From Alphaproteobacteria bacterium (GTDB lineage Bacteria; Pseudomonadota; Alphaproteobacteria; RF32; CAG-239), in the NCBI GenBank assembly GCA_020025875.1, contig JAHHRI010000001.1:9979-73978 (forward strand): a DNA stretch of 64,000 nucleotides, written 5' to 3'. Shown piece by piece: positions 4,501-63,300 of this stretch. The notes below the pieces were generated by a model that saw only the letters and a list, made by a program, of their open reading frames with translations, was not told the origin of the DNA and did no database searches. Within the stretch, counting starts at the first letter, position 1; each line of letters opens with the position of its first letter. The position numbers and the translations under genes are program-made.

Positions 4501-4577
4501 GGCGGGGTAGCTCAGGTGGTTAGAGCAGCGGAATCATAATCCGCGTGTCGTTGGTTCGAATCCGACCCTCGCTACCA
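4501..4577 (+). tRNA. tRNA-Met (anticodon CAT; tRNA-Ile2 if lysidinylated cannot be excluded)
   Basis: Cloverleaf: acceptor GGCGGGG/CCTCGCT (two G-U), D-loop AGCTCAGGTGGTTAGAGC, anticodon stem GCGGA/TCCGC with loop ATCATAA, T-arm GGTTCGAATCC, 3' CCA encoded. Confidence 0.85.
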
Positions 4578-4585
4578 ACAAAAAA

Positions 4586-4610
4586 CCCTAGATTATCTAG
4601 GGTTTTTTCT
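4586..4610 (+). terminator. Rho-independent terminator after tRNA-Met
   Basis: ccctaga...tctaggg hairpin followed by TTTTTT. Confidence 0.6.
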
Positions 4611-4636
4611 TTGCTTTAAAACAATCTTTTAACTAT

Positions 4637-4861
4637 TTAATTTTTTTTACTTTTTTCTGCCATTTTCTCCGCCGCAGGCAAGGAAGAAAAAATCAGCAAT
4701 ATGGCAGAAGCGCCGACCAATATATAGACAATGCGGCTCAAAATGCTCATCGCGCCAAAAAGAAAAGCAACCAAATCAAAGCCAAACAAGCCGATCAGCC
4801 CCCAATTTAAACCTCCGATAATCGTCAAAATCAGTGCCGTATTGAAAACGATATTATTCAT
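4637..4861 (-). CDS. Small membrane protein, DUF378-like (74 aa)
   Basis: Two TM helices, GGLNWGLIGLFGFDLV motif reminiscent of DUF378. Confidence 0.5.
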   Translation of the reverse strand: MNNIVFNTALILTIIGGLNWGLIGLFGFDLVAFLFGAMSILSRIVYILVGASAILLIFSSLPAAEKMAEKSKKN

Positions 4862-5033
4862 AACTTATCTCCCGATTTATTATCATCTAACGAAGATAAT
4901 ATTGTGACTGATACAGATTTTTCAATATGAACATCAAGCAGAAAATTGTTTTGCCGCCCCAACCGGCAGCTGACAACGCCTTACCGATTGACCGTTTCGA
5001 CAATAGAAAACAGGCCTTTTGGGGCGCACAAAT

Positions 5034-5984: not shown

Positions 5985-7291
5985 TTTATTTTTTTCCCCA
6001 CACATTGATAGTCAAACCCGAGTTGTTGCACCTCATCAAGGCTCAACATATTGCGCATATCAACGATTCTGGCGCAACGCATTATCTTTTTCAGCCGTTT
6101 AAGATCCAGATGCTTAAAATCTTCCCATTCGGTCAAGATCACGGCAACTTCCGCATCACGGCAAGCCTCGTCAACACTTTCCGCATATTGAACCGTATTG
6201 TTTAAAATGGTTTTGGCATTTTCCGTTGCCTTAGGATCATAAACCATAATATTGCGGGAATGTTTGATCATTTCTTTGACAATGTCAATCGCCGGCGATT
6301 CCCGACAATCGTCCGTTCCGCCTTTGAAAGCCAAACCCAACACCGCAATTTTTCCCTCCGGACGCTCTTTCACCAACTCAATCACCCGCCGTCCGATCAT
6401 AGATTTTCGGGCATCGTTTTGAGCAATGGTGGTTTCAATCAACGTAAGATGCGCGCCAAATTTTCTGCCCATCTGTGCCATGGCGTTGGTATCTTTGGGA
6501 AAACAAGAGCCGCCGTACCCCGGCCCCGAATTAAGAAATTTTTTGCCGATACGGCTGTCCAGCCCCATTCCTTTTGCCACTTCTTTAATGTCGGCATCGG
6601 CGCATTCGCAAAAATCCGCCATTTCGTTGATATAGTGAATTTTCATTGCCAAAAAGGCGTTTGAGGCATATTTGATGGTTTCCGACGAACGGCGTTTAAC
6701 GCACAAAATTTCGCTTTTGCCGACAAAGGGTTGATAAAGATTAAGCATCACTTCACGCGCTTTGTTGCTTTCGGCACCGATCACAATCCGATCAGGGTTA
6801 AAAAAGTCGTAAATGGCAAACCCCTCGCGCAAAAACTCAGGCAAAGAAACCACATCAAAATCGGCTTTCGGATTAACCTTGCGAATAATCTTCTCAATTT
6901 CATCGCCGCTGCCTACCGGCACCGTCGATTTAGTTGCCACAACCGTATACCCTTGCAAATAGCGAGCCAATTCTTCCGCTGCCGCATAAATATATTTCAA
7001 GTCGGCTTCTTTGGTCAGCGGATGCGGAGGCGTGCCCACCGCCAACATCACGACATCGGCATCTTTGACCGCGCTTTCCATATCTGTGGTAAAGCTCAAA
7101 GCACCGGCGGCCACGTTTTTTTGAAAAAGTTCCTCCAACCCGTCCTCATATAAAGTTAACTCACCACGGTTGAGCTTGTCGATTTTGTCTGTCAGCTTGT
7201 CAACGCAGACAACTCTGTTTCCGAGTTCGGCCAATCCGACCCCCGTGGGCAGACCGACATATCCCGTTCCGATAATGGCAATTTTCATCAT
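5981..7291 (-). CDS. ugd: UDP-glucose 6-dehydrogenase
   Basis: MKIAIIGTGYVGL NAD-binding N-terminus, catalytic GGSCFPKD motif, 436 aa. Confidence 0.85.
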   Translation of the reverse strand: MMKIAIIGTGYVGLPTGVGLAELGNRVVCVDKLTDKIDKLNRGELTLYEDGLEELFQKNVAAGALSFTTDMESAVKDADVVMLAVGTPPHPLTKEADLKYIYAAAEELARYLQGYTVVATKSTVPVGSGDEIEKIIRKVNPKADFDVVSLPEFLREGFAIYDFFNPDRIVIGAESNKAREVMLNLYQPFVGKSEILCVKRRSSETIKYASNAFLAMKIHYINEMADFCECADADIKEVAKGMGLDSRIGKKFLNSGPGYGGSCFPKDTNAMAQMGRKFGAHLTLIETTIAQNDARKSMIGRRVIELVKERPEGKIAVLGLAFKGGTDDCRESPAIDIVKEMIKHSRNIMVYDPKATENAKTILNNTVQYAESVDEACRDAEVAVILTEWEDFKHLDLKRLKKIMRCARIVDMRNMLSLDEVQQLGFDYQCVGKKIK

Positions 7292-40864: not shown

Positions 40865-42199
40865 ATGGCTAATTTTACGGTAATTGAATTATTGCTGTTT
40901 CAATCATTGCTGATTTTTTTGAACGCGGTTTTTGCCTGTGCGGAGATAGCGGTCATCTCGGTCAATGAAAACAAATTAAACAAATTGTCTGAAGAAGGGA
41001 ACAAAAAAGCAAAACGGCTATTATCACTGATGGAGCAGCCGGCTAAGTTTTTGGCAACCATTCAAGTCGGCATCACTCTGGCGGGTTTTCTCGGCAGCGC
41101 CTTTGCCGCCGACAATTTTTCCGACCGCATTGTCGATTGGCTGATTGCCGCCGGCGTCACCCTTTCTCCGGCTAAACTGGATGTTATGGCGGTAATCGGA
41201 ATCACGCTTATTTTATCCTATGTCACACTGATCTTGGGCGAGTTGGTACCCAAAAGAATCGCCATGCAAAATGCGGAAAAAATCGGTTTGGCCATGTCCG
41301 GTCCAATTTACGGCGTGGCAAAGATATTTGCTCCTTTGGTGTGGTTTTTGACAATCTCCACCAATATCGTGCTCAAGCTGCTGGGTATCAGCCCCGAAAA
41401 CCATGACGAAAGAGTGACTGAAGAAGAAATTCGCATTATGATTGATGCGGGCAGCAAAAGCGGCGCGATTGACGACACGGAAAAAGATCTGCTTCACAAT
41501 GTGTTTGAGTTTAACGACACTTTGGCAGAAGAAGTTATGACACACCGCACCGAAGTCACTTTTCTTAATGCCGATGACACACCGCAAAAATGGGAGCGGG
41601 AAATGATAGACACGCGCTATTCGGTTTATCCGGTATTTCGCGGCAGCAACGACAACGTGATCGGTTCTCTTAGCATCAAAGATTATTTCAAATTCAAAGA
41701 TCTGGACAAAGAAGATATTTTGCGGCAGGCATTAAAACCGGTGCAATTCATTCCCGAATCGGTGCATGTGAACGATTTGTTTCAAAGTATGCAAAAAAGC
41801 CGCAATCATTTTGTGGTGGTGGTTGACGAATATGGCGGTGTTGACGGCATTGTCACCATGAGCGACTTATTGGAAGAATTGGTCGGAGATCTGGAAGATG
41901 ATATGACGGCACCGCCAAGCTGCCCCGACATTGAACAAGTGGGACAAAAGGTGTGGCGGATCAAAGGAGCGGCAGCCATCGACGAGGTAATGAAATGTAT
42001 CGGAGTTTCGCTGCCAAACAACGAATGCGAAACTTTCGGCGGATTCGTGTTATCGCTGATGGGCAGCATTCCCGAAGACAAGAACAACATCAAACTGGAA
42101 TATGGCAACCTAAAGATAAAAGTTATCAGCGCCAAAGGACACAGAATTGAAGACACGCTGGTGCAAATGAACGATCGGCCAATGTCGACGAATATCTAA
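40865..42199 (+). CDS. corC: CorC/HlyC-family (DUF21-CBS pair-CorC_HlyC) magnesium/cobalt efflux-associated membrane protein
   Basis: N-terminal 4-TM DUF21, tandem CBS domains, C-terminal transporter-associated domain; 444 aa. Confidence 0.8.
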   Translation: MANFTVIELLLFQSLLIFLNAVFACAEIAVISVNENKLNKLSEEGNKKAKRLLSLMEQPAKFLATIQVGITLAGFLGSAFAADNFSDRIVDWLIAAGVTLSPAKLDVMAVIGITLILSYVTLILGELVPKRIAMQNAEKIGLAMSGPIYGVAKIFAPLVWFLTISTNIVLKLLGISPENHDERVTEEEIRIMIDAGSKSGAIDDTEKDLLHNVFEFNDTLAEEVMTHRTEVTFLNADDTPQKWEREMIDTRYSVYPVFRGSNDNVIGSLSIKDYFKFKDLDKEDILRQALKPVQFIPESVHVNDLFQSMQKSRNHFVVVVDEYGGVDGIVTMSDLLEELVGDLEDDMTAPPSCPDIEQVGQKVWRIKGAAAIDEVMKCIGVSLPNNECETFGGFVLSLMGSIPEDKNNIKLEYGNLKIKVISAKGHRIEDTLVQMNDRPMSTNI

Positions 42200-42510: not shown

Positions 42511-43818
42511 ATGACAAATACGGACAATCAGCAAGAATCGGATGAGCAACAATTTGTTCGCTTAACACGGCCAGTCGTGCTTGATAGTGCGCTGCTAAAA
42601 GCCGCAATGACAAAAGATATTCTGAGCAACAATCCCGAATATGTATCGGATATTGCACAAAGATACAACCTAGATCCTCAGCAAGATCAGGCTTCCATCG
42701 CCGACAAACTTTATGAAGAACAGATCGACACAATTACGGAAATCTGCATTGCCAACACGTTAGACGAAAACATAGTTGCCGCTTACGAACTTTTGCAGAA
42801 CGTTTGTTATTTCAGCCCCGAAGATATACACTATATGCAAATGACAGAAGGCGAGAATCTGCCCTCAAACGTTACCCAATATATTAACGAACGTTTAAGC
42901 GGCGTATCGGAGCTGATGCCTGTTGTCGATTTTACCAACACCGTTAATGAGGCCATTTTATATTCGACCAACGACTGCCCCGATTTTACTTTATACAAAG
43001 CCAATCAGCTGAAAGAAAAATTTGACGAATGCAACCTCAAGCTAACCAATGAAGAAAAAGGAAAACTAAGCTTTATTGCTTCCAAAATGTACCGCAAACT
43101 GAGCCAACAAAACGTTTTTATGCAAGACAACGGCAGAGCTGTTGATTTCCATGAAAAGGAATGTTTGCATAAGACGCTGTCGCTTACCAGCGACTATAAG
43201 CTTATCTCCCACTGCCAGAACAGACTGCAAGACGCAAAAGACGAACAGGATATTATTAGCGCTTACCAATACGCGCTGAGCAAAAAGCAAAGCCGAAACG
43301 ACTTATACAAAATCAATGTGGCCTTATCCTCTTTGTATATCGACAAAACGTAGACCATCGGCTTTTTTAATGACAGATCCGTTAAAAAAATCTCTGCCGA
43401 CAGAGCTAAAAAACATCTGCTGAACGCTTATCGTTATGCTCATAAAGAAGATCGACCGCCTCTGTTAAACAAGCTTGCCAAAATCCATATGACGTTAGGC
43501 GAGATTCAAGAGTGGAAAAATATCAAAGAAGTTTTGGCAATGAAATTTCAGAAAGGCGAGGATCGTTGCCATACTCTAAATTCGATTGCCGACAAAACCG
43601 GAGATTGCGACTTTTACCGCAAAGCCCTCGAAGAATGCAAGCGCGCTCGGATGCCACAGGCAGATAAAATTCATATACAGGAAACAACTTATGAAAAAAT
43701 GGCTTTGAAAACCAAAGACCCGACGGTTAAACAAGAGGCAGAACAGCAGCTGGCAGAGATAAGAATACAAAAACAACAAATCTTTCGGCAACTGCTGAAC
43801 ACACCAAAAGAGAAATAA
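42511..43818 (+). pseudogene. Large hypothetical protein gene interrupted by a single in-frame TAG (43351-43353); frame continues open for ~155 more codons to 43818
   Basis: ORFs 42511-43353 and 43489-43818 are in the same frame with no other stop between them; combined ~435 aa, no known domain. Confidence 0.45.
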
Positions 43819-43853
43819 CCAACGGCACTTGGAGCAAATTTTTTACAAACCAA

Positions 43854-43880
43854 TTAAAGCCCTGTTCAGCAGGGCTTTAA
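43854..43880. terminator. Hairpin terminator (perfect 9-11 bp stem aaagccctg / cagggcttt, loop ttcag) serving the convergent genes
   Basis: Read directly; T-rich flank on the minus-strand side (ttggtttgtaaaaaa). Confidence 0.55.
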
Positions 43881-43901
43881 TTGATGATATGAGCAGATAT
43901 T

Positions 43902-44057
43902 TTATTTATCTTTGCCGCATTGGCAATCTTTGCCACATTGGCAATCTTCGCCGCATTGGCAATCTTCACCACATTGACAATCTTCGCCGCATTGGCAATC
44001 TTCACCACATTGACAATCTTCGCCGCATTGGCAGTTTGGATTATTGCATTTTCCCAT
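43902..44057 (-). CDS. Small cysteine-rich tandem-hexapeptide-repeat protein, 51 aa: MGKCNNPN(CQCGED)5(CQCGKD)2K
   Basis: Minus strand: AGGAGG SD 7 nt upstream of ATG (44057-44055), ORF ends at TAA (43904-43902), 15 Cys; near-consensus promoter upstream and hairpin terminator downstream. Not in the six-frame track as such (the track shows only a plus-strand shadow ORF 43829-44098). Confidence 0.7.
   Translation of the reverse strand: MGKCNNPNCQCGEDCQCGEDCQCGEDCQCGEDCQCGEDCQCGKDCQCGKDK
43911..44036. repeat. 7 x 18-bp tandem repeat (plus strand TTCGCCGCATTGGCAATC / TTCACCACATTGACAATC variants) encoding the CQCGED hexapeptide on the minus strand
   Basis: Units read directly. Differences between E-type units (GGC/GGT, TGC/TGT x2) are all synonymous in the minus-strand frame; E->K differences are confined to the two 3'-proximal units. 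Confidence 0.85.
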
Positions 44058-44091
44058 TTTTTTCCTCCTGTAATATTAAGCTGACATTATC

Positions 44092-44120
44092 AATATAGTC
44101 TGTTGCCGACAGACTGTCAA
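44092..44120 (-). promoter_or_regulatory. Near-consensus sigma70 promoter (minus strand) TTGACA-17-TATATT; spacer contains the palindrome GTCTGTcggcaACAGAC
   Basis: On the minus strand: cgTTGACAgtctgtcggcaacagacTATATTgataatgtcagcttaatattacAGGAGGaaaaaaATG; -35 = plus 44115-44120, -10 = plus 44092-44097. Confidence 0.6.
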
Positions 44121-44261
44121 CGAGAGAGCTTTGCGCAAGCCGGTTTGCTTCCTTCATCACCCCCATCCTGCACTTTGCAAACTCGCCGTCTGAAACATCA
44201 GCCAACCGGCAACAGCCTCCTCTGCCGTCAATGCCAAAATTTCCAACCGACACAAAGCAAC

Positions 44262-44291
44262 ACATTTATAGCAAAAAAGCACTGCCAAAGC
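44262..44291. terminator. Bidirectional terminator (A-run, agcactgc-caaa-gcagtgct, T-run) downstream of the OMP gene
   Basis: Read directly. Confidence 0.6.
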
Positions 44292-44318
44292 AGTGCTTTT
44301 TCTTGGGAACAAATCCGA

Positions 44319-45095
44319 TCAGAACAATACTTTCGCGCTTACGCCGAGGGTGTAACTGTAGTCAACATAGTCGCTGCCGTTGCCCCCCAGATAATAGTCG
44401 CCGAAAACGCCGACGGCAATATTTTCTTTAACAAAGTAGTTGGCTTCCGCCTCTGCCCACCATGTATTGACATTGGTACCATCCAAAACGAAATCGTAAC
44501 GGATACCGGCATCTACAGAGTATTTGGCATCGGCTTTGTGGAAACCGTTAAACCACGAATAAGCCATCGGGCGGTCTGCATAGTCAATTCGGCTATTAGC
44601 AGTAAACGAAGTGTAAGGCATCCAGCCATTTTGCAATTCGTAGCCCAATTTAACGTTGGCACTCAATTCTTTGTACCATCTATCATCATTATAACGATGT
44701 CCATACCAACTATGCGGATCAAATGTGTAGTAGGAAGCACCGACCTGAGCCAGCCAGTTGCCACGCTGCATGTTGTATTTAGCACCGATCAAATAATCAA
44801 AGTTGTGATCGTTGTTATATTCCTGATTGGTAAGACCTTCAAAATCGAACTGGTTGCCGATTTCCGCAACAACGGAGAAGTTGTCCGTAACCCCATAAGT
44901 GATTTCTTCGGATGCGCGAAAATCTTCCGCGGCGGCAACATCATGTTTCAGCGAGGTGCGTGCATATTGCAAAGAAGTATTTGACAATACCTTCCCTGCC
45001 CCCGGCAAATACATCGGAGCAGTAATATCTTCCGCATTCGCAACACCGGCAAACATAACGGCAGCGGTTGCCAAAAGCATAGTTCTATAGTTCAT
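44319..45095 (-). CDS. Outer-membrane beta-barrel protein, Omp25/Omp31 (Hbp/Pap31)-family-like, 258 aa
   Basis: Signal peptide MNYRTMLLATAAVMFAGVANA, aromatic-rich amphipathic beta strands, C-terminal …GVSAKVLF ending in Phe; SD AAGGAG. Confidence 0.6.
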   Translation of the reverse strand: MNYRTMLLATAAVMFAGVANAEDITAPMYLPGAGKVLSNTSLQYARTSLKHDVAAAEDFRASEEITYGVTDNFSVVAEIGNQFDFEGLTNQEYNNDHNFDYLIGAKYNMQRGNWLAQVGASYYTFDPHSWYGHRYNDDRWYKELSANVKLGYELQNGWMPYTSFTANSRIDYADRPMAYSWFNGFHKADAKYSVDAGIRYDFVLDGTNVNTWWAEAEANYFVKENIAVGVFGDYYLGGNGSDYVDYSYTLGVSAKVLF

Positions 45096-45218: not shown

Positions 45219-45845
45219 TTATAAGGCTCTGGCAGACTTGCGAAAAGATTGATTTTGTTTGTTTTTCATAAATCGAAGCAAAGTCATGCGATCGACTTTC
45301 AACTCTCTGGCAATTTGCGCTTTGGGCATCTTTTGTTCAAGCATGGTGTTGATATGTTCTTCTAAACCGGTCAGTTTAAGCTTTTTGTTGCAACGTCCCG
45401 TGGGGCGGCCAAGTTTTTTCCCCTCGGACTTGATTCGGCTCAAAGCCTCTTTCGTGCGTTGCGAAATCAAATTGCGTTCTATTTCTGCCGACAACCCGAA
45501 AGCAAATGCCAACACTTTGGACTGAATATCGCTGCCTAACCGATAGTTGTCTTTAATCGTCCATACTTGAGCTTCCGCATTGAGGCAATAATGCAAAATG
45601 GTCATCACCTGCAACAGGTTACGTCCGAGACGCGATATTTCCGAAGCGATTAAAATATCATTTTTGGTAAGTTTTTTTAACAATTTACCAAGCTTGCGTT
45701 GGCGAAAGTCGGTGGCGCCGGAAATGGTTTCCTCAAACCAGCGATTGATGATAACCCCGTTTTTTTCGGCAAATTGCCCAATTTCAAAGCGTTGGTTTTC
45801 CGTTGTTTGTTTGTCAGTACTGACTCTAATGTATCCGTATATCAT
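45219..45845 (-). CDS. Small serine recombinase (resolvase/invertase family, Hin/Gin/Tn3-resolvase-like), 208 aa
   Basis: N-terminal catalytic motif YGYIRVSTDKQ (Ser nucleophile), resolvase core, C-terminal HTH. Confidence 0.8.
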   Translation of the reverse strand: MIYGYIRVSTDKQTTENQRFEIGQFAEKNGVIINRWFEETISGATDFRQRKLGKLLKKLTKNDILIASEISRLGRNLLQVMTILHYCLNAEAQVWTIKDNYRLGSDIQSKVLAFAFGLSAEIERNLISQRTKEALSRIKSEGKKLGRPTGRCNKKLKLTGLEEHINTMLEQKMPKAQIARELKVDRMTLLRFMKNKQNQSFRKSARAL

Positions 45846-60327: not shown

Positions 60328-63300
60328 ATGTTTTCAAGGATTTTTATTGAACGACCACGGTTTGCGATGGTTATTTCGATTGTGCTGACACTTGCCGGCG
60401 CAATCGCCGTTTTTTCACTTCCAATTACTCTTTATCCGGAAATTACACCGCCAACCATCAGAGTTGCAGCCACTTATCCGGGGGCAAACGCCGAGGTTAT
60501 CGCAAACACGGTGGGCATTCCGTTGGAAGAAACCATCAATGGCGTGGAAGATATGCTTTATATGGATTCGTCCTCAGATGCCACCGGACGCTACAGCCTA
60601 ACCATTACATTCAAAGTAGGCACCGACCCCGATATGGCACAGGTCAAAGTGCAAAATCGTGTTTCTCAGGCATTGAGCAAACTGCCGTCGGAAGTCCAGC
60701 AACAAGGGATTACCGTCAGCCGGCGTTCTTCCGATCAGCTGGGTTTTCTGACCGCTCGTTCCCCTAAAGGCACTCACGACACTTTGTTCCTGAGCAACTA
60801 TGTGCAAAACAACATAAAGAAAAACTTAATCAAGGTGGACGGTGTCGGAGAAATTAACGTCTATGCTCCGCCGCTGTCCATGCGCGTATGGCTGGACGCC
60901 AACAAAATAACCGCGCTCAATTTGCCCGTTTCCGCCATTAAGGCAGCAATCGGCAGCCAAAACATTCAGCCCTCTTTGGGCAAAGTCGGCTCCATGCCGG
61001 GGGATGGTTCACAACAAATGGTCTATGCCCTGCTTAGCAGCGGACGCCTCAACGATGTTGAAGAATTTAAACAAATTATCGTGCGCACCGATGAAGAAGG
61101 CGGGCTGGTACGTTTAGGAGATGTCGCCAAAATTGAGATTGGCCAAGAGGATTATAACTCGGAAGCCCGCTTTGACGGCGCGCCCTCCGTCGCCATCGCC
61201 GTCAATATGCTCTCCGGCGCCAACGCCATCAATGCCATGGCCAACCTGCGTGCGGAAATGGCGCGTTTGGAGCAATTCTATCCGGACGATGTCGAAATTT
61301 TTATTGCATACGATGCCACCGAGTACATCACGTCTTCGATTGAAGAAGTCATCTTTACTCTGATTTTGACCTTTATCTTGGTTGTTGCCGTTTGTTACCT
61401 GTTTTTGCAAGACTGGCGAGCCGTGTTGGTTCCGACACTCACCATTCCGGTATCCATCTTTGCCACTTTTGCCGTGCTGCTGGCACTGGGCTATAGCTTA
61501 AACACCCTAACCTTGTTTGGGTTGGTTCTGGCTATCGGTCTGGTGGTAGACGATGCGATCGTTGTGGTAGAACGTGTTTTGTTCCTGATGGAAAACGAAA
61601 AGCTGGCACCCAAACAAGCCACAATCAAAGCCATGGAACAAGTATCGGGAGCCATTGTCGCCACCACTTTGGTACTGTTGGCCATTTTCGTGCCGATCGG
61701 CTTTATCGGCGGCATCACCGGCAAAATCTATCAGCAGTTTGCGGTAGCCATTTCAACGGCGGTTGCTTTTTCATCGCTCAACGCGCTGACGTTGTCGCCG
61801 GCTTTGTGCGCCACCATGTTGCGACCGCTTAAACCGTTTCAGCACGGCCCGCTGTTTTGGTTCTCGCGCGCCGTTGACAAATCGCGCGACAAATACGCCG
61901 GTATCGTTGCCATTGCCAGCCGCAAGATAAGCGTGATTGCTCTCATATTCGCCCTCATTGTTGCCGGCATTGCCGCACTGCTGCATATTAGCCAAACAAG
62001 CTTCATTCCGAGCGAAGATCAGGGGGCTTTCTTTGCCAACATCCAGCTGCCGGAAGGTGCTTCCCGCGAACGTGCCGATGCTCTGGTCAAAAAAGCCGTT
62101 CCGCTGTTTATGGAAGAAAAAGGAGTCGCTCATGTTATGAACATCACCGGTCAAAGCATCATCGGCGGTTCAGGAGAAAATGTGGGCTTTATCATCGCCA
62201 TACTGGAGCCATGGGCAAAACGTACGGACAAAGAACTGTACTCCACAAATATCCTCAACAGAATTAAAGCCAAGCTGGACGACTTCCCCGAAGCCAACAT
62301 CAATATGTTTGAAATGCCCTCCATTCAGGGGTTGGGCAGCACCAACGGCATGGACTTCCGCCTGCAAGCGCTCGATTCGCCTGATCCCAAAAAGCTAGAT
62401 GCCGCTTTACAGGGTTTTCTTGGCCGTCTGAACAGATCGCCTTATGTATCTTATGCCTTTTCAACATATAATGCGACCACGCCGCATATCTTTGTTGACA
62501 TTGATCGCGCCAAAGCAGAATCAATGAAAGTCACAACCGGCGACATCTACGGCACTTTGGGACAATACCTCGGCTCCTCTTACATCAACAATGTAAACTT
62601 CGGAACTCAGGTTAACAAAGTGATCATTCAGGCCGACTGGCCATACCGCCAAGGTGTGAACAACATCAGCAGCCTGTATGTCCAAAACAGTCTGGGCGAA
62701 ATGGTTCCTTTGGGCGGCATGGTCAACTTAAGCAAAGTTTTGGCACCCAGCACCATCAACCGCTACAATCAGTATCCGGCAGCTTCCATCAATATTGTCG
62801 GCAACCATGCTTACAGTACCGGCGAAGCCATGAACGCCATCGAACAATTAGCAAAAGTTGCTCTGCCGAAGGGTTACAGCTACGAGTGGTCGGGCATGAG
62901 CTATCAGGAAAAAGCCAACCAAGGCCAGATCGGCTATCTGATTGTGCTGGCGCTGACCTTTGCTTATCTGTTCTTGGTTGCGCAATATGAAAGCTGGAGT
63001 ACGCCGATTCCGGTTCTGGCCTCGGTTTCCGTTGCCATGGTCGGCGCCCTGTTGGGGCTGTTCATTCATGGTTTGCCGCTTAGCATTTATGCCCAGTTGG
63101 GATTGATTCTGCTGGTCGGACTGGCTGCCAAGAACTCCATTCTGATCGTTGAGTTTGCCAAGGAAGAACGAGAAAAAGGCACGTCCATCAACAAAGCGGC
63201 AATGATCGGTCTGAAAGAACGCTTCCGCGCCGTGTTGATGACGGCTTTCACCTTCATCCTCGGCACTTTGCCGATGGTAGTCGCCACCGGTGCCGGTGCT

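Follow-up and report, generated by a model that had tools for sequence, protein, structure and literature searches.

A cysteine-rich CxC-repeat peptide gene in a gut alphaproteobacterium and its putative metallothionein-like role

The peptide gene and its signals

A stretch of 64,000 nucleotides from an Alphaproteobacteria bacterium (contig JAHHRI010000001.1), in the following termed the window, carries a small gene for a cysteine-rich repeat peptide. The coding sequence (CDS) is located on the minus strand (43902..44057, stop codon included) and encodes 51 amino acids with the arrangement MGKCNNPN(CQCGED)5(CQCGKD)2K, as taken from the list of open reading frames (ORFs). The ATG-initiated ORF reads MGKCNNPNCQCGEDCQCGEDCQCGEDCQCGEDCQCGEDCQCGKDCQCGKDK. 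Fifteen of the 51 residues are cysteines (29%), all placed in CxC pairs, and phenylalanine, tryptophan, tyrosine and histidine do not occur. Metallothioneins are small, contain about 15-30% cysteine or more in CxC or CxxC motifs and have few or no aromatic residues; the peptide shares these properties of size and composition. An AlphaFold model attained a predicted local distance difference test (pLDDT) value of 54.5 and had neither a fold nor secondary structure. This outcome is compatible with an apo-metallothionein and is no proof of metal binding. An outer-membrane protein, an Mpi-like invertase, two ORFs without assigned function and a CNNM/CorC transporter are encoded in the neighbourhood.

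Shadow ORFs in other frames overlap the peptide gene. The initial annotation, made from the sequence alone, had proposed a minus-strand ORF of 51 amino acids with 15 cysteines as the coding one and an ORF on the plus strand as its shadow. The former is present at the coordinates given above, and the latter, an 89-aa ORF at 43829..44098, is indeed a shadow of the peptide gene. The choice of frame is borne out by orthologues of 33-66 amino acids in about 35 species of uncultured gut and rumen Alphaproteobacteria, with invariant cysteine, asparagine and proline residues. For the shared 22 N-terminal codons, the ratio of nonsynonymous to synonymous polymorphism (pN/pS) is about 0.08 in 28 distinct DNA sequences. 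Between the loci L001 and L003, the differences in the CDS are all synonymous, while the flanks diverge. Strong purifying selection thus acts on the minus-strand frame, and on this comparative evidence the ORF is a genuine gene. Three synonymous differences between the repeat units had served originally as the argument for the frame. They are real, but they do not represent independent repeated events: they form one set that was copied with a 36-bp pair of units, and for this reason they are weak frame evidence by themselves (about 0.04).

Tandem repeats whose period is divisible by three are often open in several frames, and three ORFs overlap at this locus, as would be the case for a non-coding minisatellite that is open in one frame by accident. 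Repeat-free orthologues in dozens of species, the conservation of start codon, Shine-Dalgarno sequence, promoter and cysteine register, and the pN/pS of 0.08 leave this explanation with a negligible probability; the non-coding and the shadow-frame readings were both rejected on the orthologues and the pN/pS value. The exact peptide was absent from a gene collection of 153 billion positions. The outer-membrane protein of the window likewise had no exact record in an exact-protein look-up. At the peptide locus, a same-species Logan contig carries a truncated gene call of 30 amino acids at its broken end.

The -35 hexamer TTGACA (44115..44120, minus strand), the 17-nt spacer and the -10 hexamer TATATT (44092..44097, minus strand) named in the initial annotation were all recovered in the promoter scan, which matched 11 of 12 consensus positions over 44120..44092. 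The -35 hexamer is kept as TTGAC[AG] at the equivalent position in orthologous loci, and the -10 hexamer is kept in L001, L003, L007, L020, L037, L004 and L023. A Shine-Dalgarno sequence AGGAGG (44064..44069, minus strand) precedes the ATG by 6 nt, not by the 7 nt given before. Most alphaproteobacterial family loci have GGAG(A/G) upstream of the ATG. The spacer of the window promoter, GTCTGTCGGCAACAGAC, is filled by the perfect palindrome AGTCTGTcggcaACAGACT (44097..44115, no strand assigned). With a 7-5-7 arrangement it is longer than the operator-like palindrome described initially. A perfect 6-bp inverted repeat has a probability of about 0.0012 in a random 17-mer. The palindrome is a candidate repressor-binding site (operator) and occupies the position where the CsoR operator sits in other family members. 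A search of the window found no second copy, and only matches with two mismatches were obtained.

Downstream, a perfect 14-bp hairpin (43851..43883, no strand assigned; dG -22.8 kcal/mol, z = -5.4) separates the peptide gene from a convergent 109-aa ORF. The hairpin, which exceeds the 9-11 bp assigned to it at first, probably acts as an intrinsic terminator, possibly a bidirectional one. Upstream, a 12-bp hairpin with a T-run (44274..44301, minus strand), found by sequence reading and an inverted-repeat search, ends the gene for the outer-membrane protein. Flanked by these hairpins, the peptide unit would be insulated on both sides from read-through.

Orthologue family and repeat array

A search of reference genomes with a degenerate DNA pattern encoding KCNNPNC[QK]C detected 38 loci. 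Their hosts are nearly all uncultured gut or rumen Alphaproteobacteria, labelled 'Azospirillum sp.', Rhodospirillales or Alphaproteobacteria metagenome-assembled genomes (MAGs). The extracted ORFs follow the pattern M-x-KCNNPNC-x-CE-x-CQCG-x-x-CQC..., with the cysteines in register. Invariant positions in the alignment are M1, K3, C4, N5, N6, P7, N8, C9, C11, E13, C15 and C17. The window peptide belongs to this KCNNPNC-CxC family by its N-terminus, its CxCGxx units, the conservation of promoter and Shine-Dalgarno sequence and its gut alphaproteobacterial host. A protein search identified relatives starting with MGKCNNPNCQC. Loci of the relative P0003 (38 amino acids) are syntenic with the window, in the order resolvase, 258-aa outer-membrane protein and peptide.

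A profile search of 5.8 billion clusters yielded 32 proteins, none with a functional name; one of them, from Candidatus Gastranaerophilales, is labelled 'hypothetical protein'. Of 1.84 billion representatives searched exhaustively with HMMER, only 26 had E <= 0.001. Neither the window peptide nor its relatives matched a Pfam or NCBIfam model at cutoff. For the BmtA/SmtA family (PF02069), no Pfam match was obtained with the window peptide at E <= 1 or with 22 family members at E <= 0.1. The sole match of a PDB profile search (E <= 10) was a snail Cd-metallothionein (6qk5, E = 0.013), detected via the CxCGxxCxCG spacing; the similarity is probably compositional or convergent. No description of the family was found in a literature search that did not cover most subscription journals, so that a prior report is possible. 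The KCNNPNC-CxC peptides are an undescribed and rare small-protein family; their sequence and architecture are new, and the functional kind to which they are assigned is a known one. Such small genes lack any family model or name.

Longer database proteins contain related cysteine modules. P0036 (645 amino acids), P0037 and P0048 consist of nearly identical modules, up to 11 in number and each about 55 amino acids long. The module core in P0036-type proteins, C-G-N-P-S-C-K-C-P-T-C-E-C-G-T-G-C-T-C-G, is shared with the peptide family and is followed by the start of a ThiF/MoeB-type domain. When P0036 and other long multi-module relatives were scanned against Pfam, only the ThiF fragment was recognized, and no family was assigned to the cysteine module. 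Proteins of the P0036 type may represent the fusion, or a false joining, of a modular metallothionein and an E1-like enzyme. P0035 (114 amino acids) combines a 4Fe-4S ferredoxin domain (PF13370, PF13459) with a C-terminal CxC repeat tail (CSCGEDCNCSDN x 2), a further setting in which this type of repeat occurs.

The repetitive part of the window gene is an in-frame tandem array (43908..44033, minus strand), characterized with Tandem Repeats Finder and by unit comparison. The seven 18-bp tandem repeats of the initial annotation exist (period 18 x 7.0, 86% matches); a period of 36 x 3.5 scores better (95% matches) and describes the array more appropriately. Units 1, 3 and 5 read TGC CAA TGC GGC GAA GAT, and units 2 and 4 read TGT CAA TGT GGT GAA GAT. 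Since the units alternate between two 18-bp versions, it was the 36-bp pair that was amplified. Units 1-5 encode CQCGED. In units 6-7, AAA (Lys) replaces GAA, and CQCGKD is encoded. At a shift of 36 nt, the array is identical to itself (100%) over 54 nt.

Changes in length were expected in multiples of 18 bp, and this holds between species. The peptide gene of L019 equals that of L009 plus one 18-bp unit (GEKCQC). L023, a csoR-linked gene from another species, has a recent array of its own (18 bp x 4.9, 91% matches). These separate 18-bp gains, besides the window array, indicate that unit amplification is recurrent in the family. Two scans of metagenomes of the Joint Genome Institute, one for the window-type N-terminus plus GED and one for CQCGEDCQCGED in any codons, returned 0 matches and hence no other CQCGED array. 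Look-ups of the 109-aa ORF and of the invertase retrieved one same-species Logan contig each, L042 (99.86% identical) and L043, from SRR14298101. One breaks inside the array at position 43971, and the other stops short of it. L042, an independent sample, confirms the last 3.5 units at the 3' end. The repeat array breaks short-read assemblies. Slipped-strand mispairing within the species, as suggested in the initial annotation, would be a hypothetical route to changes in the number of units.

The block of outer-membrane protein and invertase next to the gene has about 83% nucleotide identity to L007/L020 ('Azospirillum sp. 51_20'-type MAGs), with synteny on both sides; the window locus is also syntenic with L001-3. 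The peptide of L007/L020 consists of 40 amino acids, MGKCNNPNCQCEDCQCGDNCQCGKDCGEKDSGHCGCGKDK, with 10 cysteines and without a DNA repeat. Its N-terminus and its ...CGKDK end also occur in the window peptide. As the nearest species is repeat-free and has the same two ends, the amplification in the window gene is recent. By this sequence comparison, the gene arose through amplification of a CQCG(E/K)D unit, which replaced a cysteine-poor linker and raised the number of cysteines from about 10 to 15.

Regulatory context and proposed function

A CsoR-family repressor is the next gene in 23 of the 38 loci. It encodes about 90 amino acids and starts 9-60 nt after the stop codon of the peptide gene. 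The regulator belongs to PF02583 (CsoR/RcnR family, E = 1e-29). Among NCBIfam models, that of the copper sensor RicR scores best, with 79 bits and under its strict cutoff (FrmR 45, RcnR 39). The closest solved structures are the Cu(I)-CsoRs 4M1P from Geobacillus (E = 6e-17) and 4ADZ from Streptomyces (E = 5e-15). The ligand motifs RYC.DI and H..HC align exactly with 4M1P/4ADZ, and the Cys/His/Cys ligands are conserved. These similarities identify the regulator of the relatives as a predicted Cu(I)-type CsoR. In 26 of the 38 loci, the 100 nt upstream contain ATACCC/GGGGTAT half-sites, which sit in the spacer between -35 and -10 where resolved, e.g. in L004, L005, L023 and L031. Inverted repeats of the form ATAC(C)...GGGGTAT are found in the spacer that follows TTGACA in most members, and some members have a second copy downstream. 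A His-rich exporter of the cation diffusion facilitator (CDF) type follows csoR in L012 and L023 and directly follows the peptide gene in L025.

Because the genes adjoin metal-sensor and exporter genes behind CsoR-type operators, the family probably consists of metal-induced sequestering peptides. The initial annotation had left the choice between a metallothionein-like and a precursor peptide; the association with csoR, operator and CDF genes favours the former, and the absence of peptide-modifying enzymes nearby disfavours the latter. A precursor of a ribosomally synthesized and post-translationally modified peptide (RiPP), whose cysteine repeats are modified by enzymes and whose N-terminus acts as leader, would resemble the peptide in its small size, the conserved N-terminal MGKCNNPNC and the repetitive cysteine-rich core. 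That N-terminus, however, has cysteine of its own, in the register of the repeats. Neither in the window nor in relatives, where csoR and CDF genes are the recurrent partners, does a modifying enzyme, protease or RiPP-type exporter adjoin the gene. A RiPP precursor is accordingly quite improbable.

Several loci deviate from the common gene order. In L004, a 129-aa membrane protein is encoded between the peptide gene and csoR (4570..4989, with the peptide gene on the plus strand). It has a CC motif in the first helix, CRCCC and a C-terminal HHHGCH, and no Pfam or NCBIfam match was found for it. It is possibly a new component of a metal transporter. In one genome, the peptide gene is present twice on the same contig (L015 and L041, CADAJN010000004.1). 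In both copies, the peptide ORF is truncated and joined by a deletion to the beginning of csoR (...TGAATCATTCGGAAAAC...). The two copies may be decaying duplicates or the result of a recurrent deletion.

The window gene is best read as a monocistronic gene for a cytoplasmic, unstructured, metallothionein-like peptide that would sequester a thiophilic metal and that belongs to a family usually coupled to CsoR (probability about 0.7). The 15 cysteines, as CxC pairs, would form metal-thiolate clusters. A metallothionein character is favoured by the composition of the peptide, by the weak 6qk5 match and by the below-threshold similarity to Metallothio_2 and Metallothio_5. Cu(I) is the most likely ligand because of the regulator, and zinc or cadmium are possible because of the CDF exporter. 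In most family members, a CsoR-type operator overlaps the promoter; Cu(I) would release CsoR, and the peptide would be made. In the lineage of the window, the peptide gene has been uncoupled from csoR with retention of the near-consensus sigma-70 promoter and the Shine-Dalgarno sequence. Recent in-frame amplification of the 36-bp unit (2 x CQCGED) led to 15 cysteines and would be expected to increase the metal capacity, and the spacer palindrome may be the operator of a replacement repressor.

A thiol function other than metal binding has been considered for this very thiol-rich peptide, namely persulfide buffering or carrying, or a redox sink, under control of a CstR-type sensor. The CsoR family includes persulfide sensors, as stated in PMC10318464 and PMC7533328. 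The regulator of the peptide family has the Cys/His/Cys pattern and is nearest to Cu(I)-CsoRs, not of the x-C-x-C CstR type. CDF metal exporters are co-located, and no sulfur-oxidation genes occurred among the neighbouring ORFs inspected. Such a function is thus unlikely.

The position of the ORF about 9-60 nt ahead of csoR in most relatives would also suit a cysteine-responsive leader ORF, in which ribosome stalling at cysteine codons attenuates downstream genes. Mycobacterial polycysteine short ORFs provide a precedent (bioRxiv 10.1101/834739). Downstream of the window ORF lie a strong hairpin and a gene in convergent orientation, which leaves nothing to attenuate. The cysteine codons are never consecutive, strong purifying selection acts on the other residues (N, P, Q, G, E/D), and the downstream genes of relatives belong to metal homeostasis and not to cysteine metabolism. 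Against this evidence, a leader function is highly improbable.

The sub-lineage of the window, L007/L020 and L001-3/L021/L037/L040 differs from the remaining family. A putative terminator replaces csoR downstream, and no CsoR box is present. TTGAC[AG]-17-TATATT and the Shine-Dalgarno sequence are kept at the same distance from the ATG. Among the compared members of this sub-lineage, only the window copy has a strong inverted repeat in the spacer. Control by a metal sensor is supported genomically in relatives (csoR in 23/38, half-sites in 26/38); the window copy offers only the non-conserved palindrome. The combination that marks a CsoR regulon, ATAC(C)n-N-(G)nGTAT overlapping the promoter plus a cognate csoR, does not occur for the window copy within the 64 kb.

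Several observations weigh against the metallothionein-like, metal-responsive reading of the window gene. A six-frame search with hidden Markov models (HMMs) detected no CsoR homologue in the window, no CsoR box is present at its promoter, and matches to the box occur in the 64 kb at chance level. The spacer palindrome, though real, is not conserved in the sister species L007/L020 or in L001/L003, whose spacers are unrelated and non-palindromic; for this reason its status as an operator is hypothetical. It may be the operator of a replacement repressor, the alternative being a near-consensus promoter that is constitutive, and the window copy could indeed be expressed constitutively. The 14-bp hairpin has a weak U-tract (UUGGUUUG), and a consensus terminator scan made no call. 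Profile searches against metallothionein families gave weak matches, all to curated families below threshold (PF01439 Metallothio_2, 16.4 bits vs a cutoff of 23; PF02067 Metallothio_5, 13.8 vs 25). CsoR-family proteins can sense Ni/Co or persulfide, and the associated CDF protein is closer to the zinc exporter ZitB than to any copper system, which makes the assignment of Cu(I) tentative. The exact count of seven units rests on one assembly, the sole same-species contig that reaches the array being broken within it. Finally, metal binding, metal identity, expression and regulation of the window copy are inferred from sequence and genomic context.

A more far-reaching proposal regards the KCNNPNC-CxC peptides as new copper metallothioneins in a minimal, self-limiting CsoR circuit. 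The sink would be encoded immediately ahead of the gene for its own sensor. Its capacity would be tuned, over short spans of evolution, by in-frame gain and loss of 18-bp CxCGxx units, with independent recent expansions in the window (7 units) and in L023 (4.9 units), and the enlarged sink in the lineage of the window would have been rewired from CsoR to a different repressor binding AGTCTGT-N5-ACAGACT. It is put forward tentatively and is doubtful in this specific form. Copper and zinc buffering by gut anaerobes is poorly understood, and both metals are abundant in feed and in host defence. If the metallothionein-like reading is true, uncultured gut Alphaproteobacteria possess a new metal-buffering system, a compact peptide with a built-in copper-sensor partner. 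The family would then offer a natural series of 9 to 19 cysteines for studying how capacity scales with CxC units. The array in the window would be a clear case of small-protein evolution via codon-phased tandem amplification.

Neighbouring genes and known systems

A 258-aa putative beta-barrel outer-membrane protein (44319..45095, minus strand) adjoins an Mpi-family invertase, and the pair is syntenic in L001-3 and L007/L020. The serine recombinase (45219..45845, minus strand) passes the NCBIfam equivalog 'master DNA invertase Mpi family' with 310.9 bits (cutoff 272). Invertase and outer-membrane protein could form a phase-variable surface-protein switch. An inverted-repeat search over 3.4 kb revealed no convincing invertible repeats near the invertase and the peptide unit. 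The best pair, 16 nt with 88% complementarity (43528-43543 / 44228-44243), brackets the 109-aa ORF and the peptide unit; about 1.5 such pairs are expected by chance in 3.4 kb, as an estimate. An invertible segment, considered because of the Mpi-like invertase at a distance of 1.1 kb, was rejected, as this best flanking repeat is near chance and one arm lies within an ORF.

A CNNM/CorC-family transporter is encoded 1.7 kb from the peptide gene (40865..42199, plus strand) and is also present on the same-species contig L042. The CNNM/CorC family is linked to Mg/Co efflux. The Neisseria-type DNA uptake sequence GCCGTCTGAA occurs at 44185..44194 and 62423..62432 (plus strand), 2 copies vs 0.11 expected in 64 kb. 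One copy precedes the peptide promoter by about 70 nt. The genome does not belong to the Neisseriaceae, and the occurrence may be due to chance. A neisserial origin was dismissed, with only 2 copies in 64 kb and relatives that are alphaproteobacterial MAGs. A gathering-level Rfam match to the eukaryotic small nucleolar RNA SNORD36 (6787..6864, minus strand; 32.4 bits, E = 0.29) is almost certainly spurious in a bacterial genome.

Among known systems, the mycobacterial polycysteine leader ORFs resemble the family as short, cysteine-rich and often unannotated first cistrons, here in the operons of relatives. They differ by their consecutive cysteine codons and an RNA switch before cysteine-metabolism genes, whereas here the amino-acid sequence itself is conserved and the gene in the window stands as a single cistron. 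With CxC metallothioneins of molluscs, e.g. the Cd-metallothionein of Littorina (6qk5), the peptide has the CxCGxxCxCG spacing, the lack of aromatic residues and the duplication of cysteine modules in common. Evolution by such duplication is described for mollusc metallothioneins (PMC7826182, PMC8476144). The mollusc proteins are eukaryotic, and their modules are domains with 9-12 cysteines, not units of six residues.

The number of known bacterial metallothionein types is small; a review names SmtA/BmtA and MymT (PMC7558416). Like SmtA/BmtA with SmtB, the family pairs a small bacterial protein, predicted to sequester metal, with a dedicated metal-sensing repressor. No Pfam or PDB profile link to SmtA/BmtA was found, and the regulator is CsoR instead of ArsR/SmtB. 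SmtA has a zinc-finger-like fold with cysteine and histidine ligands (PF02069, PDB 1JJD). MymT from M. tuberculosis, a small Cu(I) metallothionein that was once unannotated, has a promoter palindrome bound by the CsoR paralogue RicR (PMC7558416; PMC3944814). The peptides likewise have about 50 amino acids, are rich in cysteine and would be cytoplasmic, and promoters of the family carry a palindrome that is the predicted operator of a Cu(I) sensor of the CsoR family. Pfam and NCBIfam models detected no sequence relationship to MymT, and the likeness is functional and regulatory only, no MymT sequence having been compared. Unlike mymT, the peptide gene is usually placed directly upstream of the repressor gene and sometimes of a CDF gene as well; the window copy departs further, having lost the CsoR operator and the csoR linkage and being built from a recent tandem repeat. 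The regulator of the peptide family scores best against the RicR model.

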